Shown here: one piece after another, positions 298-56,300 of the stretch
Numbering within the stretch: position 1 is the first letter of the stretch
Layout: each line of letters opens with the position of its first letter
Origin: a virus
Taxonomy: Duplodnaviria; Caudoviricetes
Reading direction: 5' to 3' (one strand)
Virus record (IMG/VR): IMGVR_UViG_3300032290_001460
Coordinates: 42,309-106,308 of that record
Length of the DNA stretch: 64,000 bases
Position numbers and translations under genes: made by a program
The notes under the pieces: generated by a model
The model's input: only the letters and a program-made list of their open reading frames with translations
Databases searched by the model: none
What the model was told of the DNA's origin: nothing

Positions 298-3200
298 ATG
301 AGCCAAGGAACATTTGAAGACATCCATTTTAAGGCGATGAATGGCCAATTCAATATAGATGAGGCACAAGGAATCGTTGAATGTTTCGTTGCCGCCGTAG
401 GTAACAAAGACTCCGTGGGTGACATCGTCGCATCGGGGGCATTTACAGAAAGTCTCAAGCGCCGCAAACCGCGCGTTGTATGGGGACACAACTGGAACGA
501 CCCCATCGGTAAGGTTCTAGAAATTTACGAAGTACCAGCACACGACCCGCGTCTCCCAGGAAAAATGAAGCAAGCAGGAGTGGGCGGGCTCTATGCGAAG
601 GTTCAATTCAACCTTGCAACAGAAAAAGGTCGCGAAGCATTTGCTAGCGTCGCTTTCTTTGGTGGAGACCAAGAATGGTCTATCGGCTATAAGACTCTCC
701 AAGCAAACTTTGACTCCGCCATGCAAGCAAACGTTTTGCGTGAAGTTGAACTGTACGAAGTGAGTCCAGTTCTTCATGGTGCAAATCAACTGACAGCCAC
801 AATTTCCGTCAAGAGCGACGAAGGTGAAAAGTGCCACAGTCCTGCTATGGGCGCTGGAATGCCAATGATGCCAGCAGTAATGCGTGCTTTTAAACCAGGG
901 ATTCCAGAAGGTGGCCCATCGCGCATTTCGGCAAGAATTGGCTACGACGTTTCTAGTCCTCGTGAAGATATTTTTGCAGAAGGCGAAGCACGCGAACTTA
1001 ATCGCGAAGAAATTTATAGACTTGAAGAAGAACTGATGTCACGTTCTAATAATCGTCTCAAGATTATCTCCGCAACTGAAAATATGGTCACATTCCATCG
1101 GATGCTCCCCAATGGTTCATCAACGGCTTACCGTCTCCCATACCACTACGATACGGCTGTTAGACAATACATGTTTGGCAAACCAGAGAAGATGGGACAA
1201 GGTCCTAGCCAGCCTCAACCACAAACAGTCGTTCCTATGCAGATGCCCAGTATGCCAATGTCTGTCAAGCCGAATGCCGTCAGCCCATATGCCATGGTTA
1301 ACGGTGGATACGATGGCGAAAAATCCGTTGAAGAAAGACTCCATGAAGTTATTGCTGGCTTAAAGTTGCCGCTCTTCGACGATGAAGTAGCAGAAAAATC
1401 TCAACAAGATAAAATTGAGGAAGTAGTGAATCTTCTTCAATCCTATATTGAAGAGAAGAGCGAACCCATGCGTGTCATTATGAAATGTGAACCGCATCAA
1501 GCGTTCCGTGTTAAGGAACTACTCGACCCGGTAATTGAGTATCACGGACTTCAGGCAGAAGTCAGTGAAAAGGGCGTCCATCTTTCAGGGACATTCAATG
1601 ATGAAACACTCGATGCACTATATGCGTCAGAGAAAAGTATTCAACGGATGTTCATGAAAGAGGGTGGTTGGGGAAAAGATAACGGCCCTACGGGGCCGAC
1701 CTTCGAAGTTGAAGTAAAAGCCCTCGGAGGCCGAGTTGGCCAAAGAATCGGTGGAGGCCTGAGTGCTGCACCACCAGGGATGGTTTGGGTTGACGTAACC
1801 GGAGCCATAGATGGCGATAGCGATGGAATAGTTTTTGAGGGTACGCCTATGCAGCGTCCCATTATTCCTCGTGCGATGATTCCCAAGGTGCAGGCGTCTA
1901 TACTTCAACAGACTTCCCTCCCCCGCGCTATGGAAATGGAGCGAAATAGGGTTCCTAAACCATCTGTTTCGCAAGAAGATTCCAAACCACGTTTAAATCA
2001 GGTTCCTAAAAAGAATGAATCAGATTCAGTGGTGCCTTCTAAGCCTATTCCAAAAATAGACGACACTATTCCAACACCCAGTAAGGCTCCTAAAAAAACT
2101 CAGGGGCGCAAATCAAGAAAAAGCCCTCCTACTAATCCGAATATATACGACCCGTGGGTTTATAGAAATTCAGGAACCGAGCGCATTCTTGGTAACGAAT
2201 TCAGCATCATTACGCCACTAGATGAAATTATTAACTCTGTTAGTTCTAGAAGTAAAAAATTGACTCCTAAAGAAATTATTGACAATTATGCTTATTTCCT
2301 TAATTATAGAGGCCTAGACACTCAACAAGTTTTTAAAATTTTTGAAAACCATGGTTATGTTAATACTGAAAAAGTCAACCAAACCATATCTGATGAGTTG
2401 AAATTTGCGATAGATGACATTATTGCGGCAGGCGGAAGAATTGTTTTTGCACAAAATAATCTTCTAATTAATTTGGGTGGCAATAAATTAATAATTGATT
2501 TATTAGATAAAGATAGTTATAGTAATGTTAGACAGCAGTTAAGTATGCCCTTGAAGCAATTGTATGTAAAAGAAAGAAAGACAGTAACAAATATTTCGGA
2601 CTTGTCTCCTAGGTATAATTATCTTAAGCCAGAATTGAAAAAATTAAAAGAAAAGTATGGCGATTATTTTGTTATACGCGCCCTGGATGCCGGCCATTAT
2701 TCTGCTGTTCTTTTTGACCCCATCTCTGGTGACCCCCTAAAAACTTATCAATTTAGTGGTAGTCCACGAAGTACTTCTAACCTTTTAAAAAACCTTTCTT
2801 CAGAATTTACAAATGCAGCCGTAGTTAGAAGATTTGAATCAGCAAAAATATGGAAGCCAGCGCGCGAAGTCATTGATAAAGTACCGTTGAGACCAGCAAA
2901 TGAAGGGGAAACCCCAAAATTCGGTCCGCTGAGTGGTACTTCTAAGTTGGTTCAGATTTTTTCTGAACTAGGTTTTTCGCCAGACAGTAAAGAATATCCT
3001 AATGCTCTCGTTGAATTAGAAATACATGATATTGGTGACGGAAAATTTGGTGTATATGGTGTAATCGTAGATGAAGATGGCATAGAACACCTCGTGAGCC
3101 AGGAGCAGGATGGTCTTGCAGATTCATTAGATTTTCTTCGTGCACTAGGTTCAGAATATTCTCAGTCGCAATTATCAGAAATGAGAAGTGCTCATCTAAG

Positions 3201-6200
3201 ACGAATGGGGGTCGTTGGTCAATTGGGCGATACTTCTGGGTTGAGTCAAGAAGTTGAAGAAATGAGGGCTGCTCGTGATGAACGAACTTACAATCAGTGG
3301 TTCGTTGATGATGGTAGTCGTTCGCAAAGAACACCTACCCTAATTTATAATACTGCCGCAAAATCTATAAGAGATATTTTTGATGATGAAAAAACATGGG
3401 ACCCATTCTTTGAAGACCTAAAAGATGTTTTGGGTCATTCTCAAAAACAATCGCAACGCCTACTCGACCTCTACGATGACCCGAACGCTACAGAAGAGGC
3501 TATAACTAATCTTGAGGAATCAATTAGGGAATTAGATGAGCAAATTGCCGCCGTTATTGATTACGCAAAATTTTTAAATGGAGAAAATCGTCGCGCTCGT
3601 CTCAAAAGACTAAAGAATCCTCTTATTAACAAAATGATTGACGAACGTACTGGGGGCGAGTATTCGGATTTTACTGATGCTGAAATTGAAAGACTTAGAA
3701 ACAATCTGACTTTTTCCGAAAATGATATAAGCGATATCTTTGGCGTTGAGGGAAGCGATAAGGCTAGAAATTTCGTTGAATCAATGCAGGATGTTTTAGA
3801 TGATGCGGAATGGTATGACGGCATACTGAGCAGTCCTATAGAGGACGAGAATAACCCTGATTATTTGGAAAATCCATCTCAAGAACTTTACGATGATGCT
3901 ATTAGAAGTTTGAGCATGGAAATTGATTTCATAAAAGATGCTAGAAAGCGTAATCATCAACAAAGACTGGCTATTTCGGATGGTAGCAATTTATCCGATG
4001 GCACCAGTCGCTCGCAGCGTTCCTTCATTAATGGACGTGGAGTGGGCGAAACTAGGCAGATTTTCCCCAATGAAGACAAACAGGGAACTAGTAAAAAAAT
4101 TAAGTACGCTCGTTATGATGGGCGCAAAGAAGAACTGCTGGTTGAATATTCCTCTGGTGAAACCATCACCTATGGTGGAGTAACCGACAGGATGGTTTCT
4201 GCAGTTGAGAAATCACTAGATGATATTGATGGCGGGATTGACGGGATAAAAGCAGAAGCACGCTATTCTATTAAACCAGATGGACAAATAGAAGGCAGGG
4301 CGGTTAGTGTAGCAACGCTAGTGCAGAGAGATATTGAACGTCTCGAACAATACGATGTTATTACTGCAAAAGATAAGTTATGGATGCAATTAGCAGCAAA
4401 TGCCATATTGTCAAATTTTGAAGAACCGCCCGAATATGAACTATTATCCTTGTCTGACCAATTGGCTAATGTGGCAAATAAACTTGCTCGCGAATATGAA
4501 GAAAATTCTGCAGCCCTAAACCTTTTAGAAATTAAAAGTTCTATTGACGACAGAGTAGGCAATGGGCTTGGCGGAACTCGCGGTACACGCATGTATCGTC
4601 CACTGAAGGATGAAACAACATTAGATTTAACCAATGACGAAATTGGTGAATTAAGAGACGAAATTCAATCAATTCTAAACAAACATGGAGACAGAATTAC
4701 TTTTGCTCCTTTTGCAGAATTTGACAAAGCGTTAAAGGACGCTCAAGATTCAAACAAAAATAATGTAACAATTAAAAATAATTTACATTCAGCATTAACC
4801 GTTGCTTACGATGAACTTTACTGGATGGCTTCACACAGTCAAGCAGAGAAAAGATGGCTCAACCCCATTGGGGAAACACTACTCAATATTGCTGCAGCAT
4901 CCGGAAGATTCACCTCCCCACGCCTCAGTGCCAATAGGGGAGACTTCAAGGGCGTCCCATTCAATAATGGCGCACCATCAAGAATGACCCCCGAAGCACG
5001 AACTACCCTCATAGATTGGGCAAACGGAGACGGATTAGGGTTCTATGTTCTAAAAGACATACGTGATTCTTATCGACTCAGGAATGGAAATCTCACCTCG
5101 CGACAGTGGAACACTCTTGCGAACATGTACAGGCGCTTTGGTCCTGGTGGCAGTGACAGAAAAGACTCAAGTAGTAGAAGTAAAAAAGATACAGAAATCT
5201 ACTATGCCATTGTCCCTTCGGACGTCCCGGACCAAATTGACGATGAGGAAGAAGAAAAACCAAAACCCAAGAAGCCAGTAGGAAAACCTGCTTCAGAGTT
5301 ACTGCCAGGCGACTTTGATTCAATGACTGCAAAAGAAAAAATTGATGTCATGTTTCAAATTGGACGTGCAACAAAAGATAATCCCGATGGCATCGCCCCA
5401 GAAGATTGGGACAGACTAATTTATCCCCTAGACAAGGAACTTGATGTAGAAGAAGCAGTACAGAACCAAGCAGAATTCATGGCTGCACAAGAAGCCGCTG
5501 CAATGAGAGGCGAAGTACTAACAGAAGAACAGTTCTACGAAAACAAATCACGTCAAGCGGAATTACACGACAGAAGAACAATACAGCGTGCATTAAGTGA
5601 ATACGACGCTGGACGACCCGAGTTATTGCAAAAACTTGGCCTACGTAGAGAAAACTTTATTATTAAAGCAGATAGAGAATACAAGGCCCCCACTAAGCCA
5701 AAGCCGTTAGGTAAATGGGCTACAGATTTCTCCATGAAGATACGTTCTCAAATAGAAAAAGCAATTGCCAATGGGCTTGCCGGAGAAGAACATCTTGACC
5801 CATGGCTATCCATGGAAGAACTTATTAATGACAACGATGGTCTCCTTGATGAAGAAACTATCCAAAACATTATCCCTGTCCTAGAAGAATATGTCAGTGC
5901 TTATGATGGGGCAGAATTTGGACATCGTTCAGAAGGTAATAGTTATAAACAAGCCAACGACATGATTGAGGAGTTGGAAAATACTCTTTCAATTCTTCTT
6001 GACCCAACAATAATCGAAGACGATTCCGATGATAGCGGAGATGACAAGAAAGACAGCGACGCTGCCTCAGAAGTTCCAGATACAACTCAGGGAGTTTCTC
6101 TATCCATAGAGGGCGATAGTGGTTCAAAAAGCCGTCGCTCATCATCTATGGCAAGTACTACGGGCAGACAAGACGCTGTTGATTCCGGAAGTAACCAAAT

Positions 6201-9200
6201 AAATTCCGAAGATAGTAGCAGGAGTATCCGAGAAGTAATCAAATTAGAAGATTTACTTGAAATAGATAAGCGCGAACAATCCGAAGATATGGGAGAACCA
6301 TTCGTTGAGTTATCAAAGGCCCTCGAAAATTGGTTAAATAATCATATTTCAGATATGGGCGGATGGGACAAAAGTCACGAAACTCGACTACGTAGGCAGG
6401 TAGAAGATTTAATTTTGAATTTACGTGGCTTGCGAGACAAGTGGCAGTCCATGGGGACTGCTAAACGAAGCGGAATATTGAGACGCATGAAGATGGTTGA
6501 TGGCTACGAACCGCACCCTCTAACTAAAATGTCACTTGAAGATATCATTAGTAAATCAGAATTACGTATTCACGATGACGGAACTCTGTCTTTCAAATTG
6601 CCTCCCAACCCAATATTGCGGCAACTCATACCAGGCAACAGAAATTATCAAGATGTAGAGTTGCCCACTGCTGAAACTGTTAGTGAAATTTTTGATAATC
6701 TCACAAATGATTGGCGCAGATTAGATGAATTATTCAATTCAATATATGAAGTTTTTGATGAAGATGAAGACGGGCGACGTGGAGCGCGCCTAAGGAAATA
6801 CCCTGTCGGCGGGGAAAAACTGCCGCACCACTCCTTGTATCTTGGCAAGTACGCTGAACCCCCGACAGAAGCACCATCTCCGGAAGGGGCGCTCCAATAC
6901 CACTACAACGACATTTCTGCTCGTATTCTTCAGTATTACATTATCCCTGAATTAGCAAAAATTAAACGCAATGAAAATCCAAAAATTGGAGAAATCTCCA
7001 ACGATAACGACCATTTTATTCATGGATATTTACAGTTATTTACAGACCCGCATGCCTGGCAGGAGATGAGTGCTGTGTTGTCTGAAAACTTCCGTGTATC
7101 GCCCGGCACCATATTGCATGACTTATTGGGGCACTACGCCCTTGGTAATACTTTTGATAGACACGGAGAATATGGAAATATTCTTTCAACAATTCAACTT
7201 GCTCGCGATAAGAAGTTCTGGCAGAAGTTGCGCGAGATACCAGAACTTTCTGACCTATCCGAAGAGGACAGGGACCTCTACATGCGCGGCTTGCTCGTTG
7301 ATGTGGCCGCAAGATGGTTTAATCGTGTCGGTACAGACTCCCCGGATGACGAGAGGAGATTGAAGAAGAAAATAGCGTTCTACGATGGACCTATTGATGA
7401 ACTTCTTGACAAAATCGACCCGCCTAACGAACAATCGTCAAGTTCTAGTCGTTCTACACGAAGAATCCCATTAATCGATGTCGATGATAAACAACTTTCT
7501 GAGTTAGGTAAAGAATCTATTGATGGTATTGCAATAAGAGAAGAATTTATTAGACCATCTTCTCGTGACGAATTAGAACAATTTGTTTCACGAAGAAAAC
7601 CGATAGGTTCGGACCTGCCTGTTGATTTACGCACTGGCGAACCTCGCCGCATGTCTCATGAGACAGACAGAGAGTGGAATGCTAGAAGAAATAATTTTTA
7701 TAGAAACAACCCATGGTTTGACCGGCCCCCTATTGATGCTTCTGAAGATTCCCCTAAAATTGATAGAAATAACGAATTTGGTGATGGAGAATTAATTAAA
7801 CCCTCATATAAATTTAATTTTAAATGGAACCAGTATCAAGATTATACTGATGAGGAATTAATAGATAAACTTAAATCAGACAAAAAACCTTCCAATACTT
7901 TGGTGCATGAATTGTCTTTACGTGGATATGAAGTTAGAAAAAAAAGAGAATATGATTTAGGTGATTTTAGTGGTAGGGAAGGATATGACTACACATACTT
8001 CTTTGCTAAGCCAATGGATGAAATAACCCAAGAGCATCTTGATAGAAGAAAATCTAAATACAATCCAGTTGATGAAACACAAAAAATAGATGAGCCGTCA
8101 ACCAGCATAATTCCTACATTGGAAGAAGACGTTGTTGATGAACAGGATTTTGTTGAGCCAGAAGAATTCCCATTAAAGCCGAAACAGCCCAGGGTTCCTC
8201 GTCCTCGACCCGGTACCAACACCGTGAATATTGGTGGCAATAATTCGGGAATCATAAATCTCGGCAACAATGTGACAATTGATACTGGCGACATAAATGT
8301 TTCTAATCAGGGCAGTAAGATTACTATTATTAATGGGAACAAGGTTACTGTTGATGCCAATACGGATGTATTGAGTATGCCATTGAAAAAAGTTGATGAA
8401 GAACTTGCTAGCATACAGAAAGATTTAGCGGAACTTAAAGAAAGAAGAGTAAAGGGCAGTATTTCTGATGCTGATTATGCTCAGCGACGCGTAGATTTGG
8501 CTAATAGGAAAGTTGCTCTCAAATTAAAGAAACATTCCGTCCCTGATGGTGATGCAACCAAGGGCACACCCAATGTTTCCTATATTGGCAACAGTTCAAG
8601 GTCAACCAGAAATATTGATTATTATCGTAGGGAATTTAATCTTTCTCCAGAAGATTTGGAATTCATCAAATATACCAATGCCCCAGATTTATTTTTGCGT
8701 GAAGAATTTGGGATAGACGATACAGCCATAGCAGACATTCGTTCTTATGTGCCGCCGTTGGATGTCATCAAGGAAATAGATTCTTTAACCGATGATGATG
8801 TTAGATTCCTTGAATCTTACGATGGTATTGTTTCACAAATTACTGAAGAATTTAATTCTTTTGTAACTCGGACGATGGCCGAACGTCTTCAGGCTATTCA
8901 ATACATAGGAAATTCTAATCTCCCTGAATTGGAAAAACAAGAAAACATAAAAGAAATTGATGATGCATTTAATGAATTATTAAAAGTTAACAGTGAAATA
9001 CATTTCGATAGGCTGAATGATGCCGTACTATATACGGCACCTTTAAATTATCGCGGTTTTGGTTGGAGGATGACCCCAGAAAGAATTTCTTCACTTGGCT
9101 TACCTGAAGGCTATGAAAACAAATTAAAGTTCAATCAGGCTACTCGCATTTGGGAAATGATGAATGGACTGGGCTTTGACTGGGACGAAATCGAAGATTT

Positions 9201-12200
9201 CACTGGTTTGACTTTTGATGAATTGAAACCCCTATTCCCACATGTCCGAATTATCGGGATGATACGCGAACAGGAGAAAAACTCTTTAAATAATCCTCCT
9301 GAAGATGGTTCTTCTTCTCGTTCAATGAGGCCCGAACGTCGTCAGATAGTCCCAATATCTGGGAATTATACGAGACAAGGTAATTTACATAGAAAGTTAG
9401 ATGGACTTCTAACACCCGGCAGTAGTGATTATCGCAAAGATGATTTAAGTGATGAGGAAATATCTGCCATAAAGAAGTTTAGTTACTCCCAAACAGTAAG
9501 GTACGACTACGACTATGACCCGTTGTCGTTAATGACCTACGAAGAATTAGACACATTATCAAATCTCATAAGTGCAGACAGAGCAAAGTCTTTAAACGTT
9601 GAATTCGATAAAGATTTTCGAAAATTAATCGAACAAGAATTCGACATACGAGACATACGAAATGACCCCTTCAAGTATCGAGGTGGTGGCAACGAAAGAA
9701 AATTAAAGAGAGAATTCGTATCTGCAGAAGAATTCTTAGGCCCAGGCATGGACGGATATGCAATTAATAGAGGGATGCATGGTGGATGGCTGTATCCGGA
9801 TGGACGCATATATCCGCTACAACAAGATTCCCACGGTACTGAGTTTGTTTATCGTGATGCTTTTGAAGATGGTTTAATTCGGATTATTTTCTCTCAAAAA
9901 AGTCAAAGGCGAGATTCATCTATGGATTTGGAAATAGCAGACGCTCGACCAACTCCAGAGCAGTATGAGACTTTACAGAAACTTATGGATGCTGGAGAAC
10001 CTAGTGAAATACGTTTTGCTGCTGGTAAAAAAAGTGAGGAGTATGATGCGTCTTATACTTCTCGACCCACTTATCAGTATGAGAATGTTTTACGTGGCAA
10101 AGATACTAAAAAATTAAAAGAATCTTTGACGCAAGAAGTTTCATGGAAGCAAGAAGAGTCTACTAGTGATGACAGTTCTTCTTCTCTCTCAAAAAAGGGA
10201 ACATATCGACCTCTTCTTGGTCATACGTTCGAAGGTTATGGTCAAGCGGAAAAGAAGTTGTCATACAGTTTAGAAAAATTAAGTAAACAAAATGGTGCTG
10301 CCAAAAAATTAAACGATGAAGAAAAAAATGTAATTGAAAAATATTTTCAAATCAAAAATGCAGATGCAGAGCCATTGAGATTACTCTCAGATGATGAAAT
10401 AAAAACTTTACTTAATTTAATTAGTGAAGAAAAACTGACAGTGAGAAATGCCGACCTATCTGCAGAACTGTTGGGTGTTTATAGAAAAGATGCAGAATAT
10501 TTACTTATACGAGAATTAGATATTCGTTCCAACCCTCAAAAATATAAGTTTGGTGGAAATGAAAGAAAACTAAAAAACAGATTTCTTTCAGCAAAACAAC
10601 TAGTCGACCCTGAAACAATGGGTGTTTGGGAGACTCCATCATTACGGGCAGCATGGCTTTATCCAGATGGAAGGCTTTATCACGTAACTGATGGACATAC
10701 AAAAGAACATACCTACAACGACGCTTTTGGAGATGGTCTTATTAGGTTGAATGTAAGTTTGGCCAAGGAAAAAGATGACAGAGGTCCAGCCACCGCTCCA
10801 TTTTTGGCTATACATGCAGCCGACATAGCCCCTACTGCTGAGCAAATGAAAATATTAGAGGAACTTATTGATGTAGCCAAGCCGAAAGAAATCTTCTATC
10901 AGGCTGGAGTGAGTAGCAAAATACATAATCCGAACGAAGTTATTCCTGACGACTCCGACTTTGGCATCTATGTAGAAGGTGAACGAAGTGGAACTATAAA
11001 ATCTGGCGACCTGAAGAAAAGGCTGAAGCAAGAATTGGATGCAGTTGGCTGGGCGAAATTGCCAGACAACGACTCTTCTTCTCGTTCCAAGAAAGATACA
11101 GATTCTGATTTATCTGACGAAGAATTTAAAATCATCGACGATTTTGTTAATGCTGATATCGACAACATTGAGCCAGTTGAAGAAGAACCTACGGACGGCC
11201 GAACGCGTCGGGCTCGTGCAAAAAAAAGAGAAGAATTCTTAAGAGATGCTGTTACTCAAATCATCAAACTTTCAGAAAATGCGGAAAAATTTAAACGTGG
11301 GCCAGATGCTGGTGAAGTCTCTGGAGGTCTTTTGGAAAAGGTGGCACAGATGTTCGCCGCAGGAGACTATAGCATCATAGATAAATATGAAAAAATAGTC
11401 AAAGAAAAAGGCGCAGGAACAAGCCCGGGTGAATTTTTTGCTAACTCATATTATAAATATGAATCACTTGGCGCCGAACAAAGATTAGAACGCCAAAAAG
11501 GTGGAAACAAGCAAAAGGGCAAGTTTGTTGAAAATATAGAAGCATTAGAAGCAAAAATAACTGATGGGGAAAGTAGTTTTGTTTTGCCAGAATTGTCTAT
11601 AGAAGATGATTTGAGCGTCGGTGAAATTGATGAAGACGTCGCTAAGAAAATTGCGTTTTATGATAAATTTGAAGAATATTTACCCTTACATGCAGAAATT
11701 ATGGGATATATCGGGTCTGGGATGACTGCATCTAAAATTAGCAAGCAAACAGGAGTTCCTATAAAGATAGTTAATGCGATGAAAAGCAATATGGCTTTTA
11801 TTGCAGAACAATTGGGCGATATTGAAAATTGGCCCCTGGATTCACTGGACGAAGATTATCGGGATATAGCGAAACTTTTGCCAGGTGACGATATGTCGTT
11901 AAATTTGGATATTGCCAAACGTCTTCAAAAAGCAAAAACATTTTTTGAAACTATCGAATTTGATAGAGATACTGGAGAAATAAGTTTCGAGCAAACATCA
12001 ATTGCTCAAAGACAAATTAAACTTGAAAAAAATAATGATATTATATTGTCATTTTTTGAGGACGGGAAGCCTGCTCCGACCATAGAGGAAATTGCCAAAG
12101 CCCTTGGCGTTACGTTCGATTCCGCCAGAGGGCTAATTGTTAGATTGCGGAAAACTACTGGTAGAAAACTGAAAACTGGGAAGAAGGAAGAAAATAGCAA

Positions 12201-39062: not shown

Positions 39063-39098
39063 CAATAATTTTACTTATTGCCAAGGAGGAGGTGTGTT

Positions 39099-40688: not shown

Positions 40689-40697
40689 GGTAAACAA

Positions 40698-40919
40698 ATG
40701 AGTAAAAACAATAAACCGATATTCGTCAATGAGAATACTTTAACCAACAGGCAATTTGACTTAGATGCAAGCAATCTTGAAGAGTTGGCAAGACTTATTG
40801 GGGTAGCGAAAGATAGCCCTGAATTTGACGAGTATTTAACTGAGGCAAATAAACTATCTTGGGTAGAAACCGCCCCTAAAGATATTCGGGATGCCATTAG
40901 GGCACGCGAAGTAAAGTAA
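40698..40919 (+). CDS. Small hypothetical protein (73 aa); candidate inhibitor or partner
   Basis: AAGGT precedes the ATG. The ORF fills the gap between two tagged effector genes. Confidence 0.65.
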   Translation: MSKNNKPIFVNENTLTNRQFDLDASNLEELARLIGVAKDSPEFDEYLTEANKLSWVETAPKDIRDAIRAREVK

Positions 40920-40928
40920 AATACTACA

Positions 40929-43865: not shown

Positions 43866-46800
43866 ACATGAACTGGACTTTCACAATAGGGGATAAAGAC
43901 TATTCCGCCACTTATGACAATGCTTCTTTTGTTACGGATTCTCCACTCGTTGAATACTACGTGAACAAATTAATCGATGACAGAACTGTCGTCGAAATAG
44001 GCGATGTAGGCCCAATGGCTACCGCATCCTTTGAAACCGATGCTCACGCATGGGGAACAATAACGCACGCTATCAGGAAACTAGCCAACATAGGCTCAGG
44101 CAAATATCCATTCTCACCATTAAACGGCGAAGACGAAATAGTTAAACCTGATGATAAAGAACCAAAAACCAAGTCACTAGGACCATCCCTTGGTGGCGTC
44201 AACGAACCATTTGACCCTAATGCTTTCGATGGCGACAACGACGGCATGGTGCAAGACAGCACTCAATGGGAAAGACCTGCACTACCAGGTCAAATTCCAA
44301 CAGTAGTGTCGCAAGAAGTTGCTCGGCCTGTGAGTTTAACCTTCACTGGGCCAGACCCACGAATTTTATATCCAGACATGGTAGGCAAAACTGGCTCTGC
44401 TAGATATGGGAATTCCCCATCTATACGCATAGAGCATCCTCTATCTCCAGGCAATGACATTGCTTTTGTTTCCGTTAGAGACTTAATGAAACTCCCTGGG
44501 AATATGCCAAATGATGATGGGGAGATTATTTTTGAAGAACGCGTTGAAAAATTGAGACAAGAACTTCTATCGAATGGATTCCGAAGCCCGATTGATATTG
44601 CGTACGACCCGACAACGGGCAGAGCATACGTATCAGAAGGCAACCATAGGCTTCATGCGGCATTTGCTGCAGGATATTCCTATATTCCTACAACTATTTT
44701 TCCTATGCGAATTAATGAGAATCGTCCGGCTTTAATCATTACAAAAGATTTAGATAAATGGCCGTGGAGAGAAACCGCAGATGGCGTTTACTACAATAAA
44801 AATCATATGAGGGAAAGATACTTGGAGCGAGAAGATGCTTGGCCCCCATTCGCCCCATCGGAACAAGATAAGAAACATATACCAAACATGAGAATTCACC
44901 CGTTGTGGGTTCTTCCTCAAGGAAGTATTGCAGGAGAAATTAGCGATAACGGTGTTTGGGGTCCATTGCAGCCAAATGCAATAGAGCCATTGACGGACAC
45001 TTCGCGTTCCAAGCGCGAATTCAGTTTCTTCCCTTCCCTAGGAAAAAAGAATAGGGTAAATAAGAAGGCCTTAAGCCAAGTCGGTCCTTATCCCGTTGTT
45101 GGTGATGTTGACTATCCTTCTACGACGCATAGGTTTAAAGTACATGGTTATGAAACATTATGGGCAGTACCCGAAGTTGGTGGACTCAACCCTGGAGAAA
45201 TGCTACTTATCAGAGATTATTCAGATGAAATAAAAAATTTTCATCACATTGAAGGAATATCTGATGGATTAGTCCGTATGACAAAAAGTGGACAAGTATT
45301 ATTCACAATTTTGTCACCCGAAGAATCTGTTGAATTACGTGAAAGTATCAGCACGGGGAAGCCTCTATCCGCATCCATAGAACAGCGCATATCAGACAGG
45401 TTTGTAAAAATACCTGGTGAAGATGGAACCATTGATGATGCTATTGATTTTATGTACTCGATACTTCCATCAAATATAACTAAACCTAAACAGATTTCTT
45501 TGTTTGAACAAGAGGTTATAGACGAATTCACTTATCCGGATGGGCAAAAAACAATAGTTACAGTGGATGCACATGCTAGTCACACTCAAAAATCAATGAC
45601 TTTTTGGAACGGCCATACACCTACTGAATCACTTGAAACAATGCGAACGTTCTTTCATGAACATGGCCATATGATTGACCCAATACCACCTATGTATTAC
45701 ATGGTTCATCCAACTGCTACGCAGATGCTGGGCGACTCTCCCGAAAAGCCAATGTATTTCAGCGATTCAATAGCATGGGGGGCTGCAGTGGAGCGTGATA
45801 GCCAGGTCGCTCATAGTATGATTTTAAAAAATGCATTAATTCATCCTGAAACAAGAACACGCATGAGTTTTATTTCTGGCAAGAAGGCTGTTAGTTTATA
45901 TGGCACAACTGATGTTCGGGAGGATTTTTCTGAAGCATTGGCAATGTATTTGATAGATAAATTCTATGGCAGTTTTGTTATAAATGAAGAATTGGGCACA
46001 AACGTCAGATTTGCTCAACTGTTTCCAAATAGGGCACAATTTTTTGATGACGTTATAGGAACATTGTATAGTTTTGATGAGCCTCTTGAAAATTTAGTTA
46101 AAGCGATAACTACGGGTGATTTCAATGCTATTAATAGTTCACGCTCTAGTCGTATAGTTCCTTCTAAATCAACTTTAATACCTGATGGAATATTCGATGT
46201 CGAAGAGCCACGATTTGGAAGCGTTCAAAAATTAGTAAGATATACCATGGACAACCCAGAGATAAATGTTTTTCTTTTCAAAAATGCCGCGTTAAGTCCA
46301 AGTAGTTCACAAAAAACTGAGTTTGGTATTGCCGTAAAACATTTAGTCCCAAACAATTTACTTAGTCGCGATGGACACTTTATATCGGTTGATATTTCCG
46401 AAAGTGAATTTGAAGAGTTATCAACGAGCATGGTTCTTGGTAATGGAATCCCACAGGAAATATCTAATAGAATTAATTCAAAATTAGATATTATTCGTAA
46501 TCAGATGCAAAAATTGCATGCAGTTTTACCGGATGGCGCTGTTTCAAAAATGAGTTTCATACATGCAAGTGAAAAAAGTCTATTCTTGCCATGGGTGGAT
46601 GTAGACGGCCAGGCTGTTACGCAAATTTCTAACGGCCTTGGCCAAGAACCACGCAATTTTATTGCAATTTATAGTTTAAATAGACATACCGAAAGTCATT
46701 TAAGCGATGTATTAGCGCACGAACTCGGGCATATCCTTGATAGAGATGGTGGGCGAAACTATAAAAAATCATTTGTTAATGAATCTAATAGATGGCTAAA

Positions 46801-49339
46801 AGCAAGAGCAAGTGATAAAAAAACTTTTGAAACATTTAGACAATTACTTGATGACGAAATACTTGTTCCAATTTCTAGAGATTCTGCCGTCCCAAATATA
46901 CGTAAAGGGAAAAAAGGAATAACAGAATATGGCGGCACAAGTGATAGTGAAGATTTTGCTGAAACAATAAAATTGTATATATCAGACTTGCGGAATAGTG
47001 GTTTATTCAGAAATAAAGATACTAATGAAATGGTCCGTTTTTCGGATATGTTCCCTAATCTTCATGGAATGCTTAAAGAATTTTTATCAACATACGAAAC
47101 TAATACAACCGATAAGGAAGTTATAGAAACAGTAAGCGACAGTTCTTTCTCACGGCGTTCTAGTGGGTTTTCTAACGGGACGTGGAAAATCGAAGGAAAT
47201 GTCGTGCAGGAAATTAGTAAATGGCCCGATAAAAATACACCTCAGGGTAAAAAAATCCTTGATAGTGCCGAATTCAAAACACAGGTGGCATTGCTGGATG
47301 CAATGAATATTTGGCGAGGTAGTTTTAGTGACAGTAGAATGTTGGCTCGTATTCTTGGTGGTCTCAAGCCTCCAGAGGGAACTCAATACGTCGACGACAG
47401 GTTTATGAATATAGCACGAGTGCTTGATGGTGCTCTTGAAAATGCTCCCACTATTTCTGGTCAAGTTACTATCGCCGGAAAATCCATACCACTCCCCCTG
47501 TATCGTTCGATGCGATTAACGCCAGATGTTTTCGATAGCATAAATTTTGGTGTTGGCAGCGAATTGAATTTTAGGGCTGCTTCAGCAGCATTTAGGGCCG
47601 ATGTTGCGGCACAGTACAACATTGATGAATTAACCAATTTAGGTATTCGTGGAGGAATGCCTAAGAAAATCATTGTTCAGTTGCCCAGTGATACCAAGGG
47701 GCTAGTTTTTGATGATAGAAAAACTATCGTTGCGGACCAATTTAATGAACGCCCAGTAGAAGCAATCATTCGTGGAAACTTTAGGGTCGCTTCAGTCAAA
47801 ACAATAACTATGCGCGACCCAATAACACGCAAGGATATTGAACAAGAAATTCATGTTATGGAACATATTGAACCGCCGACAAGTTCTCGTTCCACTAGAC
47901 GTAAATATCACACAACGAATACACGACTAGACATCGGCGACTTTATTGTTTCACCTCGTAAGTCTGGCAAGGAGAATGAAAGTTCTAGTCAGATAGATTT
48001 CAATGATTCTTCAGTGGTTTACGCATCTCCCAATTTTGCTGATGTGACTAGAGGAATCGAAGATTTTGCTAGTTCTGGCAGATATAAAGATAGTAACGGG
48101 CCTCTCTATATGTATCAAATTGAGGACACATCTCCAGCGAGCCTTAGTAGCGACACGTTCCCCCGTAATGAACTATCAATGACGTCATCTAGGGTGGAAC
48201 GAGGCAAGGTCACTGGCATTTATAAGGTTTCCGATGATGGCGATGCTTTCATGTTTTCTGGTGGCTCGCGTTCAAGACGTAAGGGCGCAGGAGTACCAGC
48301 ATCCAAGCCTAAAGATACACGCAGAGCAATAAGAGGCAAAATTGTTTCTGGTCGTCAGGGAATTGACGAAGATGGACTTACTCCAGAATTCATTCAAGCC
48401 ATGGAGTCAAAAATGGAAGAGATGGGTCTTTCTAGGGAAATGTTTCAAAAGACTCTTGATGATTTTTTAAAAACTTTAACTAGAACTAATATCGATATTG
48501 GTAAAAGATGGTACCCATTCGTTAATCGTCGAATGAGAGATATGGTCGAAGATTTAAATAATAGATATGGTACTTCTATAACTTTCGAGCAGGGCGCCGC
48601 CGTAATGGCAGCGTTATCTCCTTTGAGGGAAGTGAATGAAAATATCAAGGCGGCAAAATTAATTTTAAGAACTTTTGCTGCTGATGAAGATTTTGAGATA
48701 ACAGAAGAATTATTAAGTAAGTTAAAAATTTCAAAAAAAGAAGTTGAGATTTTCCTTGCTCGTGCTGGCGATGGAAAAATTAGACCTTCTGAATTTAACG
48801 ATGACGAAATAGAAATACTCATAGGTTTGAATCTTGGTTTTCTTAAAGCCGGAAGTGTTGATGGTCTTGCGAATATTAAAAAATCAATTTTTATTTTGAG
48901 AGATAAAAATTCAATAGATGATGTGCTTAAAGGGCCCAAAGTCCGTTCTTTTTATTCTAATATCGTAGACCCAAATGGAACTAGAGTGACGATTGATACA
49001 TGGATGTATAAAATGATGGTTCCTCCAGATGTAAAAATATTATATAAAGGGCAAGAATTAACACTTGCCGAACATTTGAACATAAAGGGACCCGACGGCA
49101 AGAAAGTAAATAACGTTCAAGCGATGTTCCAAGCAACGCCACAAAGCAAAAAATTGGGTGGACAAATTGGTTTATACCCCATATTTGCTGAATTGATAAG
49201 AAATGCAGCAATAAAATATAATATTCCTCCCTCTGCTCTTCAGGCAGCACTTTGGGAAAGGTTCAGGATGCAACTTTCTAATTATCAGCCAACTGATTGG
49301 GATGAAGTTGCTGGACTTTTTGATTTGGATGTAGAATAA
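43862..49339 (+). CDS. 1825-aa polyvalent protein: ParB/Srx-like domain, two lethal-factor-like zincins, ADP-ribosyltransferase-like domain, Arr-like domain, C-terminal glycosylase-like helical domain
   Basis: Tag at 44171-44280. VSEGNHRLHAA at ~44630. HEHGH at 45656 and HELGH at 46718. LYRSM...PVEAIIRG at ~47500-47775. YHTTNTRLDIGD...VVYASP at ~47905. AALSP/GPKVRSFYSNI/VTIDTW/LQAALW at 48600-49256. Confidence 0.85.
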   Translation: MNMNWTFTIGDKDYSATYDNASFVTDSPLVEYYVNKLIDDRTVVEIGDVGPMATASFETDAHAWGTITHAIRKLANIGSGKYPFSPLNGEDEIVKPDDKEPKTKSLGPSLGGVNEPFDPNAFDGDNDGMVQDSTQWERPALPGQIPTVVSQEVARPVSLTFTGPDPRILYPDMVGKTGSARYGNSPSIRIEHPLSPGNDIAFVSVRDLMKLPGNMPNDDGEIIFEERVEKLRQELLSNGFRSPIDIAYDPTTGRAYVSEGNHRLHAAFAAGYSYIPTTIFPMRINENRPALIITKDLDKWPWRETADGVYYNKNHMRERYLEREDAWPPFAPSEQDKKHIPNMRIHPLWVLPQGSIAGEISDNGVWGPLQPNAIEPLTDTSRSKREFSFFPSLGKKNRVNKKALSQVGPYPVVGDVDYPSTTHRFKVHGYETLWAVPEVGGLNPGEMLLIRDYSDEIKNFHHIEGISDGLVRMTKSGQVLFTILSPEESVELRESISTGKPLSASIEQRISDRFVKIPGEDGTIDDAIDFMYSILPSNITKPKQISLFEQEVIDEFTYPDGQKTIVTVDAHASHTQKSMTFWNGHTPTESLETMRTFFHEHGHMIDPIPPMYYMVHPTATQMLGDSPEKPMYFSDSIAWGAAVERDSQVAHSMILKNALIHPETRTRMSFISGKKAVSLYGTTDVREDFSEALAMYLIDKFYGSFVINEELGTNVRFAQLFPNRAQFFDDVIGTLYSFDEPLENLVKAITTGDFNAINSSRSSRIVPSKSTLIPDGIFDVEEPRFGSVQKLVRYTMDNPEINVFLFKNAALSPSSSQKTEFGIAVKHLVPNNLLSRDGHFISVDISESEFEELSTSMVLGNGIPQEISNRINSKLDIIRNQMQKLHAVLPDGAVSKMSFIHASEKSLFLPWVDVDGQAVTQISNGLGQEPRNFIAIYSLNRHTESHLSDVLAHELGHILDRDGGRNYKKSFVNESNRWLKARASDKKTFETFRQLLDDEILVPISRDSAVPNIRKGKKGITEYGGTSDSEDFAETIKLYISDLRNSGLFRNKDTNEMVRFSDMFPNLHGMLKEFLSTYETNTTDKEVIETVSDSSFSRRSSGFSNGTWKIEGNVVQEISKWPDKNTPQGKKILDSAEFKTQVALLDAMNIWRGSFSDSRMLARILGGLKPPEGTQYVDDRFMNIARVLDGALENAPTISGQVTIAGKSIPLPLYRSMRLTPDVFDSINFGVGSELNFRAASAAFRADVAAQYNIDELTNLGIRGGMPKKIIVQLPSDTKGLVFDDRKTIVADQFNERPVEAIIRGNFRVASVKTITMRDPITRKDIEQEIHVMEHIEPPTSSRSTRRKYHTTNTRLDIGDFIVSPRKSGKENESSSQIDFNDSSVVYASPNFADVTRGIEDFASSGRYKDSNGPLYMYQIEDTSPASLSSDTFPRNELSMTSSRVERGKVTGIYKVSDDGDAFMFSGGSRSRRKGAGVPASKPKDTRRAIRGKIVSGRQGIDEDGLTPEFIQAMESKMEEMGLSREMFQKTLDDFLKTLTRTNIDIGKRWYPFVNRRMRDMVEDLNNRYGTSITFEQGAAVMAALSPLREVNENIKAAKLILRTFAADEDFEITEELLSKLKISKKEVEIFLARAGDGKIRPSEFNDDEIEILIGLNLGFLKAGSVDGLANIKKSIFILRDKNSIDDVLKGPKVRSFYSNIVDPNGTRVTIDTWMYKMMVPPDVKILYKGQELTLAEHLNIKGPDGKKVNNVQAMFQATPQSKKLGGQIGLYPIFAELIRNAAIKYNIPPSALQAALWERFRMQLSNYQPTDWDEVAGLFDLDVE

Positions 49340-49343
49340 TATA

Positions 49344-51691: not shown

Positions 51692-53011
51692 ATGTCAGAA
51701 GACACTTCACGTCTGAACGAACTGCAAAGCGCACTCCGTTCAAAGATGTCCGATAATAAGGCCATCGCAGACTCATTCAAGATTCAAGACGGCACCGTCG
51801 TTGTATCAACCGACCAAAAGACAGCGTTTGACAAGAACATGCGCGACATCAAGGAAATCAAGAGTCTCATCGAGGGCCTTGAATCATTCCGCGAAGTCGA
51901 TGCATGGAGTAATCAGGCTTCAGGTCAGTCAGTTGGCGCATCGGCTGCTGCTAGCGCCGCTGGTGCTTCGGCACAGCGCACCCAATTCAAGTCAATCGGT
52001 GATGAGTTCGTCGGTTCGGCTGAATTCAAGTCACTTAACGGTGGCCGCAACGGCGCAAACATGCCTACCCCATTCACGACCAATGCAGTTCTCACCGGCT
52101 CATACAGCCAGAAGGACCTGTACTCAGGATTGCCGACCGGAAACCCCGGTACCTTCGGCAACATCCAGCGTGACCCGATTGTTATTCCTCCAATGCGCAC
52201 CAAGCGTGTTCGTGACTTGTTCCCCGTTCGTACAACGAACGCTCAAGTTATCGAATACTTCCGCATGACGGGATTCACCAACAACGCTGCAGCAGTTGCA
52301 CAGCGCAACAATGACAACACCAACTTCGGCATCAAGCCGCAGTCGTCCTTCACCTTTGTGGGCGAGCAGGCTCCGGTCCGCACCATCGCTCACTGGGAAG
52401 CCGCACACCGTAACGTTCTCGCTGACGAACCGCAATTGCGTTCAATCATCGACAACGAATTGATGTACGGTCTCCGTTTGCAAGAAGATGCACAGATTCT
52501 TGCTGGTGACGGTACTGGCGAAAACCTTCAGGGTGTTCTCACCACAACGGGTATCCAGACATACGACTGGTCGGACGGCGCACATTTGCCTGTCGCAGAT
52601 ACTAAGGTCGACGCAATTCGTCGTGCCGCAACCCTGTCGTTCTTGGCTTACTACGAGCCAACCGGCGTGGTTCTCCACCCGAATGACTGGGAAGACATGG
52701 AACTCGCTAAGGACGACAATGGCCAGTACCTCGTTGCTGTGTCGGTCGCCCTTGGTGGAGAGCCCAAGTTGTGGCGTATCCCTGTCGTCGAAACCCCAGC
52801 AATGACAGAAGGCACCGCTCTTGTCGGTGCATTCGGTACCGGAGCACAGTTGTACGACCGTGAGCAGGCCAGCATTAGAATCAGCGAACAGCACAGCGAC
52901 TTCTTCGTCCGTAACGCCATTGTGATTCTTGCCGAACAGCGTTTGGCTCTTGCTGTCAAGCGTCCGGAAGCATTCGTCAAGGTCAACTTCGACGCAGCAC
53001 CAACAGCCTGA
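51692..53011 (+). CDS. Major capsid protein, HK97 fold, with an N-terminal coiled-coil delta-like domain
   Basis: Motifs VRDLFP, VRTIAHW, LRSIIDNELMYGLRLQEDAQILAGDGTGENLQG, VVLHPNDW...KDDNGQYL and FVRNAIVILAEQRLALAVKRPEAFV. Strong codon bias. Confidence 0.97.
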   Translation: MSEDTSRLNELQSALRSKMSDNKAIADSFKIQDGTVVVSTDQKTAFDKNMRDIKEIKSLIEGLESFREVDAWSNQASGQSVGASAAASAAGASAQRTQFKSIGDEFVGSAEFKSLNGGRNGANMPTPFTTNAVLTGSYSQKDLYSGLPTGNPGTFGNIQRDPIVIPPMRTKRVRDLFPVRTTNAQVIEYFRMTGFTNNAAAVAQRNNDNTNFGIKPQSSFTFVGEQAPVRTIAHWEAAHRNVLADEPQLRSIIDNELMYGLRLQEDAQILAGDGTGENLQGVLTTTGIQTYDWSDGAHLPVADTKVDAIRRAATLSFLAYYEPTGVVLHPNDWEDMELAKDDNGQYLVAVSVALGGEPKLWRIPVVETPAMTEGTALVGAFGTGAQLYDREQASIRISEQHSDFFVRNAIVILAEQRLALAVKRPEAFVKVNFDAAPTA

Positions 53012-53044
53012 TAACTAACTCGTAAGAGGAAGAAGTAGTGGCTC

Positions 53045-53095
53045 GGCCCCTCGGAAGACGGTTCTCATGCCGTCAACTGAGGGGCCTTGTCATTT
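53045..53095 (+). terminator. Probable intrinsic terminator after the capsid gene
   Basis: A ggcccctc/gaggggcc stem with an inner gacgg/ccgtc stem, followed by ttgtcattt. Confidence 0.65.
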
Positions 53096-53127
53096 AGTAA
53101 ACATTTAGTATTTTAAGATTTGAGACT

Positions 53128-53304
53128 ATGGGACGCCATACATTTAAAGACGATGATAATGATTTCGATTGGGAAGAAATCGAAAAAGTTACAAAAAATT
53201 ACAAGGGCTCTGCAGACGATTTGGAAGACATACTCATTGATGAGGCTTACCAAAAACGTAAGAAGAAAAAGAAGCCAGGGCGCTTCACCGACGAAGAAGG
53301 TTGA
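53128..53304 (+). CDS. Small hypothetical protein (58 aa), not in the ORF track
   Basis: MGRHTFKDDDNDFDWEEIEKVTKNYKGSADDLEDILIDEAYQKRKKKKKPGRFTDEEG. The stop overlaps the next start. Confidence 0.6.
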   Translation: MGRHTFKDDDNDFDWEEIEKVTKNYKGSADDLEDILIDEAYQKRKKKKKPGRFTDEEG

Positions 53305-56300
53305 CCGTGAAGTTTGATTCAATAGATAAAATTCAGGTTGTTGAAACTGAAGGTAAGGCTGCCCCAGTTTGTCCACCAGCAACACAGGATATTGGATTAA
53401 ATATTAAAAATCGCCAGAACGCGATTGACACCGCTGGTTATGGCCCCCTAAATCCTGCCGAACCGAACGATGAGTTCTGGGAGAAAAAAGGTGACCGCTG
53501 GAGTGTCTCCATTGAAGAGGCTAAAAAGCAGGTTTGTGGCAACTGTATTCTTTTTGTTCGCTCTCCACGCATTTTAGACTGCATTGAGGGCGCCCTGGGT
53601 AATGAAGCCGGCAATACGGCAATGGATATTGTTGAAGCAGGCGAAATCGGGTACTGTGAAGCGTTCGACTTCAAGTGTCACTCTGCGCGTACTTGTGATG
53701 CATGGGTTGTTGGTGGTCCGACTGTCACCGATGGAAAAGCCAATGATGAGGACGAGGAAGACAAAGAAGAGACTAAAGACGTTTTCGGGTCTATGCCGAG
53801 TGGTAATCCCGGAACATTTGGTTCAGTGGAACGAGATGGAACCGTAGGTAAGCCGCCGTTTCGTGATGACAATGAAAAGAAAGCATATTCTTTCATCGAC
53901 TCCATGGATGATGATGAATTGGAAAAGACGTTCCCTATTGATGACGAGATAGCCGTTGAAGAAGTTAAGGGGATGTTCGGGGTTTCGACAGGTTTCATAT
54001 TAGGAACCCTGAATGAGCGACGCAAGAACAAGAAAAAGAAAAAGTTAGAGGAATTAGAAGGAAAAGAAAATTCCTTGTCTTTGCTAGAAATGAAGGAAGC
54101 AGAATTCAATAGTTATATTGACTCATTGGATGATGATGAATTTGACATCATGTTCCCTGACGATTCTGACGAAACAATTAATGATGCAAAATGGCTATTT
54201 GATACCGCTGGTGGTTTTATACGGAGGGGCATTACCGGTCGTCGCAAGAAAATAAGAAAGACAGATGAGCAGTTCTCTATCAAGGGTGCAGGTAATCGTG
54301 AATCAAGCGACTCCAAAGGTGGTCTATGTTGGGACGGTTACAAGCAAGTCGGTATGAAGAAGGGCAAGAACGGTCGAATGGTTCCTAATTGTGTTCCAAT
54401 TTCGCCAGAAGAGAAATCGGCAAGCAAGCCCGTTCTTCGTGACCCCAAGGGTGGTCTTACTGCTGCTGGCCGCAAGTATTTTAAGAATAAAGAAGGCGCC
54501 GACCTTAAGCCCGGAGTCAAGGGACCCGCTGATACTCCTGACAAAATGCGCCGTAAGGGTTCTTTTCTTGTGCGCTTCTTCACCACTCTTTCTGGCCCCC
54601 TAAAAGATGAGAATGGGCGGCCTACGCGTCTTGCTCTTTCTGCTGCGGCGTGGGGAGAGCCTGTCCCACAGACTGCAGTTGCCGCCAAGAAACTTGCTGC
54701 CAAGGGTCAACGACTTCTTGAGAGATATCGTAAATTGCAGGATAAGCAAAAGAAAAAAGAATACGATAATTCTATTATTGAAGAAAAATCTCTTACAGTT
54801 GATGAAATTGATTCAAAAAATTTCATTACTCCTAGTTTCAGAAATGCGGGATATAGAGAAGCAATCAATGGGGCTAAACCGATTGTAGAAAAAACTGCAA
54901 AAATATATGTCAAAATTGATAATTCTGATGATGTTTCTAAAGTTATTAATACAAAGGTCGATGGGGCAGGCGAGCCCGAAAACAAAAAAAAAATAGTTGA
55001 GTTAGAGTTTCTTTCCGTTAAGGAACTTGGTGCAACGATTTCTTCTAACGGGAAAAAACCTTCGACAACACAAAAGCCGGCCAAGTCCAACACTCGCACC
55101 ATTGGTGGAGGTTCATCATCTAGCGGCGGCTCGTCTGGTGAAAGGTATGACCCGAAAGCAGTAGACCGCGATGGCGATGGAAGCGTTCAAGAAGGAACTG
55201 ATTTCATGCGACCCGCACAGTCCCCTAAAAAAGATGAGGGGAACAAAACGAAGCCAAGAAGAACTGCCGACAACTTGGAACGAGCAATGGAATCTGTCAA
55301 CTGGGAAGACTTCAGTAAATTAGTTGCATCAGAAGCAAGAAAATTAAAACCAGGTCAAGCGACCAATTGGAATGCCGGCATTCTGCCGAATGGCATCATT
55401 GATACTGACGGTAGATTTATTCCAGCGCCAATTGAACCTGGGAACATTGATTTATCAAACAGAGAGCCGATACGTCTAGATGATGGTTCCATGGCTACTG
55501 TACGTAGTATTTCCGGAGTTGTTGATGGTAAAGAAGTATTAATACCTACAATAGGACCTAATGGTGAAAACTGGAATCCCGATACTGAAGAAGGAAGAAA
55601 TGCTGCTTGGAATGAGTATTTTGAAACAGGAAAAAATTTAGGAACGTTTAATAACGCCGAAGAGGCTAATGTTTTTGCGGAATGGCTGCATCGACAAGAA
55701 GAGTCAAGAGTTAAAGATAAGCCAACCCCGACGCCTACCACTCCTACTCCCAAGCCTCCTGTGCCCACACCTCCAACCCCACCCGCACCTACAGTGCCGC
55801 CGACGCCTACTCCTAAGCCCACTACTCCCACGCCTGGTCCAACGCCACCGACAGCACCGCCTGTCCCTGGTCCAACGCCACCGACAGCACCGCCTGTTAA
55901 GCCTGCACCAAAACCTCCCGTAGGACCCAAAGAACGTGGAGAAGGCGCTACGCCCAAGCCGCAGGCTCCTTCAGATACGCCTACTGAAGGACGGGGTGGG
56001 CCCTCAAAGCCTGACAAGCCGAGCGTTCTACTTCCACCCGTTTCTAGTCCTCCCCCAACAACGCAGCCGGGAATTCAGTTTAACCCACCCACAACAACCA
56101 CTCCACCCACAACAACCACTCCACCAGCGACTACAACGCCGCCTACGACTACACCAGCAAAACCAGTTACACCCGTTGGTCCAAAGGAAAGAGGAGAAGG
56201 TGACATTCCTCCACGTCTTGGGCCTGCACCAGTTGGCCCCACAACAACTGCCCCACCAAAAGTAGGACCAGCCACCCCTCCAATTAATCCACCCACAACA

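Follow-up and report, generated by a model that had tools for sequence, protein, structure and literature searches.

A short D-x-D-x-D-G tag shared by otherwise unrelated head-module proteins of uncultured HK97-type phages, a candidate label for capsid cargo

The head-gene block of an uncultured Caudoviricetes virus raises a simple question: why should seven proteins of very different size and domain content each carry the same short acidic peptide? We addressed it in a 64,000-nucleotide stretch of DNA (the window), which comprises bases 42309-106308 of the 106,308-bp IMG/VR virus record IMGVR_UViG_3300032290_001460, whose completeness is estimated at 71%. The peptide, referred to here as the tag, consists of a D-x-D-x-D-G loop followed by a G-T-x-x-x-R-P segment. 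The original prediction had counted seven copies, one per protein, and a six-frame regular-expression (regex) search recovered all of them, with the first Asp codon at positions 1810, 29622, 31275, 39246, 41031, 44228 and 55164. These positions are 3 nt past the earlier coordinates, which had counted the preceding residue. All seven copies are on the plus strand, one in each of seven open reading frames (ORFs), and no further copy was found in six frames anywhere in the 106,308-bp record. By a rough estimate, the strict pattern is expected by chance about 1e-4 times per genome.

Alignment of the copies showed that the tag is part of a longer unit of about 43 amino acids (aa), which has three parts: K-[A/S/G]-[L/I]-G, a basic Gly/Arg-rich linker of variable length, and F-D-P-N-A-x-D-G-D-x-D-G-x-V-Q-[E/D]-G-T-x-x-x-R-P. 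The first module (1717..1860) covers K474-P521 of a 4421-aa protease fusion, and the second (29565..29672) covers K202-P237 of a 539-aa protein. The third (31200..31325, K206-P247) belongs to a 2740-aa polyvalent protein, the fourth (39189..39296, K38-P73) to a 536-aa protein, the fifth (40974..41081, K16-P51) to a 978-aa protein and the sixth (44171..44278, K104-P139) to an 1825-aa protein. The seventh (55095..55214) covers R599-P638 of a 1435-aa protein. The modules of the protease fusion and of the 2740-aa protein, which carries a DUF3721 domain, form a variant (B) with V-D-[V/I]-[T/S]-G before the loop (V-D-V-T-G in the fusion) and I-V-F-E-G-T...R-P-I-I-P-R after it. The original prediction placed every copy after K-[ASGE]-[LI]-G and upstream of the effector domains. 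In six copies the Lys motif lies 19-31 aa upstream; in the seventh, K-E-L-G is 48 aa upstream (55020-55031) and a closer T-R-T-I-G-G aligns at the K-x-L-G position. The second statement needs one correction, since four of the proteins have a sizeable N-terminal part ahead of the tag: an S78 protease followed by two folded domains in one, DUF3721 and DUF6321 in two others, and in the fourth a stretch of 200 aa without a known family.

Is this similarity one of DNA or of protein? DNA identity among the seven copies is 44-74%, and the same codon is used at only ~10-58% of the conserved residues. Because the codons differ freely among the copies, the conservation reflects selection at the protein level; an origin as a DNA repeat or by recent duplication was rejected, since synonymous sites are scrambled. 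In BLAST comparisons of the regions before and after it, the tag was the sole similarity common to the seven proteins. A common pro-domain as the true shared element was also rejected, because the pre-tag regions are mutually dissimilar. The different codons, together with the lack of any other BLAST similarity, indicate a protein-level tag on unrelated proteins. Such an arrangement, a short peptide on several head-encoded and otherwise unrelated proteins, is that of a capsid targeting sequence.

The tag is not peculiar to this virus. A profile of the seven copies, compared with 1.84 billion cluster representatives, matched 827 proteins at E<=1e-3, of which 139 also passed E<=1e-10, and 48 of the top 150 matches hold two to five copies. 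In IMG/VR there are at least 370 confirmed tag sites. Near-complete relatives of 116-137 kb carry 2-6 tags each, and the capsid proteins of tag-bearing contigs are 64-78% identical to that of the window. Narrower patterns, applied to one genome each of 185,579 prokaryote species, gave only four loci, all on contigs of metagenome-assembled genomes (MAGs); at L085, the one locus of the four whose neighborhood was examined, the capsid protein is 64% identical to that of the window. No tag was found in 400 further gammaproteobacterial genomes, and a tblastn search with the tag gave no match among 50,697 isolate phage records. The isolates nearest by capsid and protease similarity (Gordonia phages GMA6 and ChisanaKitsune and Brevibacterium phage Cantare, with 47-56% capsid identity) showed no tag by hidden Markov model, and the database members recovered by a word search are all metagenomic. 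Pfam, PHROGs and NCBIfam contain no model for the tag. The motif search proposed with the original prediction thus located the tag only in phage head-module proteins; these counts, in which the species genomes contribute four MAG loci, do not describe a motif common in non-virion proteins. The tag is a real, strongly conserved and previously uncatalogued element of putative phage head cargo.

The family also made it possible to ask where in a protein the tag is placed. Forty-seven of the 207 located tags lie at most 45 aa from the annotated start (about 12-45 aa), typically after a short basic leader next to the Met. The other 160 are internal, and K-[ASGT]-[LIVA]-G occurs within 55 aa upstream in 48% of them, compared with 1.8% at control positions. 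Because the search profile itself held K-x-L-G, the comparison was repeated on the 62 internal tags whose profile match started past this motif. K-[ASG] was present within 45 aa upstream in 95% of these (36% of controls), and [DE]-x-K-[ASG] in 32% (5.5% of controls). In multi-tag proteins, the first tag stands at the extreme N-terminus and each later one 5-15 residues past ...E-x-K|A.... A family-wide rule, by which the tag lies either near the protein's own N-terminus or 5-35 aa past K-[A/S/G], is well supported by these observations. The N-terminal position of a capsid targeting sequence is therefore seen throughout the family, and in the window given cutting at the Lys. In short, the module is real and under selection, all the occurrences found lie in phage head modules, and its placement follows an N-proximal rule. 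The earlier proposal of a signal that becomes N-terminal after cleavage is partly supported, by this placement, by the head-module confinement and by the Lys-[A/S/G] site; its role may be capsid targeting, portal docking or ejection.

The proteins that carry the tag in other phages are built like those of the window. Among the pre-tag regions of 60 relatives, Peptidase_S78 was found in 29, DUF3721 in 12 and DUF6321 in 4, the same three families as in the window, and one protein (P0016) joins a portal to five tagged segments. Among 48 members, a Pfam census returned zeta toxins, ADP-ribosyltransferases, PI3K/HipA-like kinases and many unknowns. In divergent phages, the gene context is again portal, cargo and capsid. 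Contig L092 encodes a terminase, a portal fusion and a four-tag ART-PolyVal protein, followed by a capsid protein without BLAST similarity to that of the window; contig L094 encodes a portal, MuF, a four-tag kinase-like protein and an S78 fusion, followed by a capsid protein 49% identical to that of the window. Relatives also have tagged proteins of about 540 aa, with the tag near aa 210-250 and the gene directly 5' of the capsid gene, which resemble the 539-aa protein of the window in size.

Two further observations concern the architecture of family members. P0050 (L089:7094-7729) and P0046 are small proteins of 172-211 aa with two tandem N-terminal tags and a C-terminal domain that by eye resembles a peptidoglycan-binding domain, for which Pfam and NCBIfam found no family. 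The P0050 gene adjoins that of an SLT_3 lytic transglycosylase, and both proteins are possibly ejected, cell-wall-acting virion proteins. In one relative (L005), a protease ORF (8253-10011) and a tagged cargo ORF (9947 onward) overlap in different frames, with a Lys-rich stretch just ahead of the tag. This overlap looks like a frameshift, either a sequencing error or a programmed shift at the fusion point, and the apparent split was not used as evidence.

If the Lys motif is a cleavage site, which protease would use it? The HK97 capsid protein is cut at K103/S104, a site that falls in an unstructured segment beyond the scaffolding domain (PMC10275583), and K-[A/S/G]-[L/I]-G resembles this site. 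An S78 protease (PF04586) and an HK97-fold capsid protein (PF05065) are encoded in the same module in the window and likewise in relatives. The window capsid protein has a candidate maturation site, F-K100|S101-I-G (nt 51989-51994), after its helical N-terminal domain. The AlphaFold2 (AF2) model of this protein contains helices at residues 5-73 with a predicted local distance difference test score (pLDDT) of 61-85, the rest being poor (mean pLDDT 40), and only weakly supports the position of the delta-domain boundary. Similarity to several more distant capsid proteins, among them those of Cantare and of Mesorhizobium, Paraburkholderia and Alteromonas phages, begins near residue 100; the Cantare capsid gene encodes 436 aa, and it is only the tblastn similarity that begins at ~100. 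Gordonia phage capsid proteins align with that of the window from residues 2-8. The AF2 model of residues 1-560 of ORF1, the protease fusion, was built on an alignment of 26 sequences. It shows three folded domains up to about residue 472, and the pLDDT is below 50 from K474 on. The stand-alone proteases of two tag-bearing relatives stop at the equivalent of the K|A-L-G of the fusions and have no tag, which indicates that the tag belongs to the cargo and not to the protease. The HK97 S78 protease reportedly carries a capsid-targeting tail of its own; the tag as the protease's own targeting signal was rejected because the stand-alone enzymes of tag-bearing phages lack it.

Other sequences that could relate to processing were noted. 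On the divergent tag-bearing contigs L092 (1-1121) and L093 (1004-1642), genes for trypsin-like (Trypsin_2) serine proteases lie close to the head module, and a Lys-specific protease from outside the S78 family might cut there; Pfam found no S78 domain in the L092 ORFs tested. Within the window, [S/G]-S-R-S-x-[R/K] occurs at 23 sites between 2242 and 48282, spaced ~115-930 aa (in ORF 298-13563, for example, at aa 650, 1007, 1237, 1626, 1974, 2384, 2767, 3007 and 3595). Its hosts are six of the seven tagged proteins and an untagged 3362-aa ORF, and none is in the capsid protein. The element probably serves as a further linker between modules, or as a processing site, that is specific to this genome and differs from K|[A/S]-L-G.

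The loop itself was compared with known calcium-binding motifs. Asp at loop positions 1, 3 and 5 is invariant in the seven window copies, and position 6 is Gly in six and Ala in one. Among 205 family tags, in which the three Asp residues were preset by the locating regex, Gly at position 6 is found in 95%. The consensus of these tags, some positions of which were likewise preset, is [F/Y]-[D/N]-P-[N/D]-A-x-D-[G/A]-D-x-D-G-[I/L]-V-Q-[E/D]-G-T-[P/A]-[F/W]-[E/Q]-R-P-A-x-P, with Arg-rich positions ahead. Position 10 is Glu or Asp, and position 12 is Thr in 95%. The tag is like the D-x-D-x-D-G calcium loops of the EF-hand, Excalibur (D-x-D-x-D-G-x-x-C-E) and integrin FG-GAP motifs in its Asp at 1, 3 and 5, Gly at 6 and hydrophobic residue at 8, and like Excalibur in the acidic residue at 10. 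On the other hand, it has no flanking EF helices, and its invariant G-T-x-x-x-R-P is foreign to those motifs. The loop is thus not a canonical EF-hand but appears compatible with the Excalibur pattern, and its residues make Ca2+ binding plausible. A sequence-profile search of the PDB returned only calmodulin EF loops at a non-significant E=0.34, and Foldseek with the protease-tag model returned nothing at E<=1e-3, only weak herpesvirus-protease rows. On its own, the tag is predicted to be disordered.

What, then, could the tag do? In a large clade of uncultured phages of the HK97 type, the tagged proteins are presumably packed in the capsid and injected together with the DNA, and their effector-like domains (zeta toxin, ADP-ribosyltransferases, PI3K/HipA-like kinases, ArdC/MPTase) count in favor of this role. 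We favor a reading in which the tag addresses capsid cargo or retains it, from an N-proximal position that prohead-protease cleavage exposes, and in which it possibly depends on Ca2+; we give this reading about an even chance of being correct. The precursor would first be built into the procapsid, often as a fusion to the S78 protease, the portal or another N-terminal domain. The protease would then cut after the Lys, so that each cargo piece would have a new N-terminus with the tag a few residues away. Finally, the tag, probably with a bound divalent cation, would hold the piece at, or address it to, a conserved internal component until ejection; the capsid scaffolding domain, the shell interior and the portal are candidates. 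We infer this biochemical role, that is, cleavage, Ca2+ binding, a binding partner and packaging of the cargo, from the sequences and their gene context.

Several observations weigh against this reading. Loop position 12, in EF-hand numbering, is Thr and not Glu. The profile used in the large search included K-x-L-G, so that the top matches are biased and this was only partly controlled. When 16 capsid proteins were aligned, the position ahead of [S/T]-[I/L/V]-G proved to be occupied by K, Q, G, R, N, A or Y; as it is often not Lys in the relatives, the capsid data do not fix the protease rule. The block also encodes an untagged protein of 3362 aa, and hence the tag is not needed by every large protein there. 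It also occurs beside a capsid protein without BLAST similarity to that of the window, which argues against the fast-evolving shell surface as its partner. Furthermore, polyproteins that are already fused to the protease or the portal keep a tag on each segment, which suggests that it may act after entry or during cleavage. Taken together, the location of the tag downstream of the putative cut, its presence on every fused segment and its retention across diverged capsids suggest that it may act on each mature fragment, in retention, organization or ejection, and not only in entry.

These same observations give substance to the best of the alternatives, in which the tag would act only after assembly. 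As an N-terminal leader or anchor, it would tie the mature cargo to the portal, to the tail channel or to the DNA, would determine the order in which pieces are ejected, or would serve as a Ca2+ switch, folding where Ca2+ is abundant, in the virion, and letting go in the low-Ca2+ cytoplasm. Fusion would already secure the entry of segments that nevertheless keep their own tags, every tag is close to an N-terminus that is either free or newly made, a basic stretch precedes it, and it is predicted to be disordered. It is also kept across phages whose capsid proteins have diverged past BLAST detection, and a PF04860 portal is encoded in the record of the window and in three of four divergent contexts (L091, L092 and L094; none on the short contig L093). 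However, tags on each segment fit pre-assembly cleavage, avidity or the fusion of separately tagged genes equally well. We consider a purely post-assembly role unlikely.

Somewhat less probable again is a function in proteolysis itself, in which the tag would be a docking element on the primed (C-terminal) side of the scissile bond, bound by the S78 prohead protease as it cuts at the upstream Lys and perhaps recruits its substrates. K-[A/S/G] and the tag are indeed paired roughly one-to-one with a spacing of 5-35 aa, the tag is often fused to the protease, and it co-occurs with S78 proteases in the clade of the window and in L094. Yet the 47 tags at native N-termini have no upstream Lys site, the capsid protein is presumably cut without a tag, and the L092 context has no S78 domain by Pfam. 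Moreover, in the AF2 model of a natural protease-tag fusion, the tag gains no confidence, and thus there is no sign of docking in cis.

Improbable, finally, is an ordinary Ca2+-binding linker spread by domain shuffling without an addressing role, or an FrpC-like element that cleaves itself at Asp-Pro in a Ca2+-dependent manner: D-x-D-x-D-G loops do occur in many unrelated structural contexts, calmodulin loops are the sole PDB resemblance, a non-significant one, and variant A has a conserved [D/N]-P four residues ahead of the loop, but a linker leaves unexplained the N-proximal placement, the single copy per protein in the window, the head-module restriction and the conserved flanks (G-T-x-x-x-R-P), while Asp-Pro is missing from variants B and C, the FrpC self-processing module, at ~177 aa, is far longer than the tag module, and no Asp-Pro bond that opens a ~170-aa Ca2+-binding module was found, the tag module having ~25-43 aa and no Pfam match.

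The cargo address thus remains the reading that we prefer, and the layout of the head block can be set beside it. The seven tagged ORFs span the region from the portal gene to just beyond the HK97-type capsid gene, and all features named in this paragraph are on the plus strand. The 3' end of the portal gene (PF04860, E=2.4e-47) occupies 1..189; the gene (record 40410-42497) begins before the window. It is followed by the 4421-aa ORF at 298..13563, which comprises the S78 prohead protease (aa 22-174, nt 361-819; PF04586, Peptidase_S78, E=2.7e-10), two folded domains, the tag and ~3900 aa of cargo that ends in wHTH domains; Pfam also reported LexA/AsnC HTH domains. ORFs of 598, 3362, 174, 225 and 673 aa lie between it and the 539-aa tagged ORF (28962..30581). 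The 2740-aa protein (30585..38807) has, in order, DUF3721, the tag, a zeta-toxin kinase, pentapeptide repeats, ArdC-N and MPTase-PolyVal; with several effector domains on one polypeptide encoded among packaging genes, it is a classic polyvalent protein. The 536-aa ORF (39078..40688) and the 978-aa ORF (40929..43865), like the 539-aa ORF, matched no known family in library scans. The 1825-aa ORF (43862..49339) ends in DUF7178, and two small ORFs separate it from the gene for the major capsid protein (51692..53011; PF05065, E=1e-45, phrog_10), which is of HK97 type with a helical, delta-like N-terminal domain. Directly after the capsid gene comes the 1435-aa ORF (53301..57608), which has DUF6321 upstream of its tag.

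Some neighboring genes were also noted. The untagged 3362-aa ORF (15667-25755), in the middle of the cargo block, had no Pfam or PHROGs match save a sub-threshold KTSC. Shortly upstream of the window, on the minus strand, lies the gene for an 823-aa large terminase (record 37651-40122; L088:7652-10123), with a LAGLIDADG/Hom_end homing-endonuclease insertion at aa ~300-365, between the N- and C-terminal terminase domains, that is probably an intein. A staphylococcal-nuclease-like gene (58031-58435) follows the last tagged protein, and a minus-strand block (59758-63023) encodes two HNH endonucleases, a methyltransferase and a GT2 glycosyltransferase with TPR repeats.

The entry of giant multi-enzyme proteins into phage heads is known for few model phages (T4 and P1), each with its own signal. 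A short and sharply defined module in at least 827 protein clusters could allow the virion cargo of uncultured phages to be predicted from sequence alone. Since the predicted cargo would be the first weapons delivered into the host, the question of which metagenomic phage proteins are injected becomes searchable. The tag is also a candidate portable label for loading foreign proteins into HK97-type capsids, and it provides a concrete peptide for questions of Ca2+ binding, protease processing and capsid docking.

How does the tag compare with known systems? N-terminal capsid-targeting peptides are established for T4 IPIII and for P1 DarB, in which the N-terminal 30 aa are involved (PMC9024508). 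Like the tag in our reading, these are short N-terminal peptides common to otherwise unrelated proteins that enter the head and are then injected, with a link to processing by the prohead protease, and DarB is a giant polyvalent protein. However, there is no sequence similarity, and neither T4 nor P1 has anything like the acidic D-x-D-x-D-G loop. In T4 the signal precedes the cut and is lost with it; the loop of the tag follows the putative cut and would stay on the protein. HK97 shares with the window phage the protease family (PF04586) and the capsid fold (PF05065), and in both the N-terminal scaffolding domain ends in a site, a candidate one in the window, of the Lys|Ser-[L/I]-Gly type; its protease is co-assembled inside the procapsid, which we count as a further likeness. 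In the window phage the protease is fused to ~3900 aa of cargo, whereas HK97 lacks both giant cargo and a D-x-D-x-D-G tag.

Polyvalent proteins (Iyer et al. 2017, PMC5512222) are represented in the window by the 2740-aa protein, with the hallmark ArdC-N, MPTase-PolyVal and zeta-toxin domains, and in family members by ART-PolyVal; they and the tagged proteins are all encoded among head genes. In that paper, the term "calcium" occurs 0 times and "prohead protease" once, and no shared tag is described in the passages around the terms searched. The cargo-loading peptides of encapsulins are likewise short terminal peptides on diverse cargo, with an HK97-fold shell and with cargo genes beside the shell gene; they are sufficient to load cargo, and shell-cargo fusions also occur (PMC7355545). 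Encapsulins, in contrast, are a cellular nanocompartment and not a virion, they involve no protease step, and their sequences are not demonstrably related to the tag. The G-S-[I/L]-G-R of the tag presumably resembles the encapsulin G-S-L-[K/R]. This comparison leads to a bolder proposal, which we advance tentatively and to which we give clearly less than an even chance: the module would be a portable, Ca2+-dependent N-terminal address label that docks protease-cut cargo fragments on one conserved site inside HK97-type procapsids, and by which hundreds of uncultured phage lineages load and release anti-host enzymes, making it the virion counterpart of the encapsulin cargo-loading peptide.

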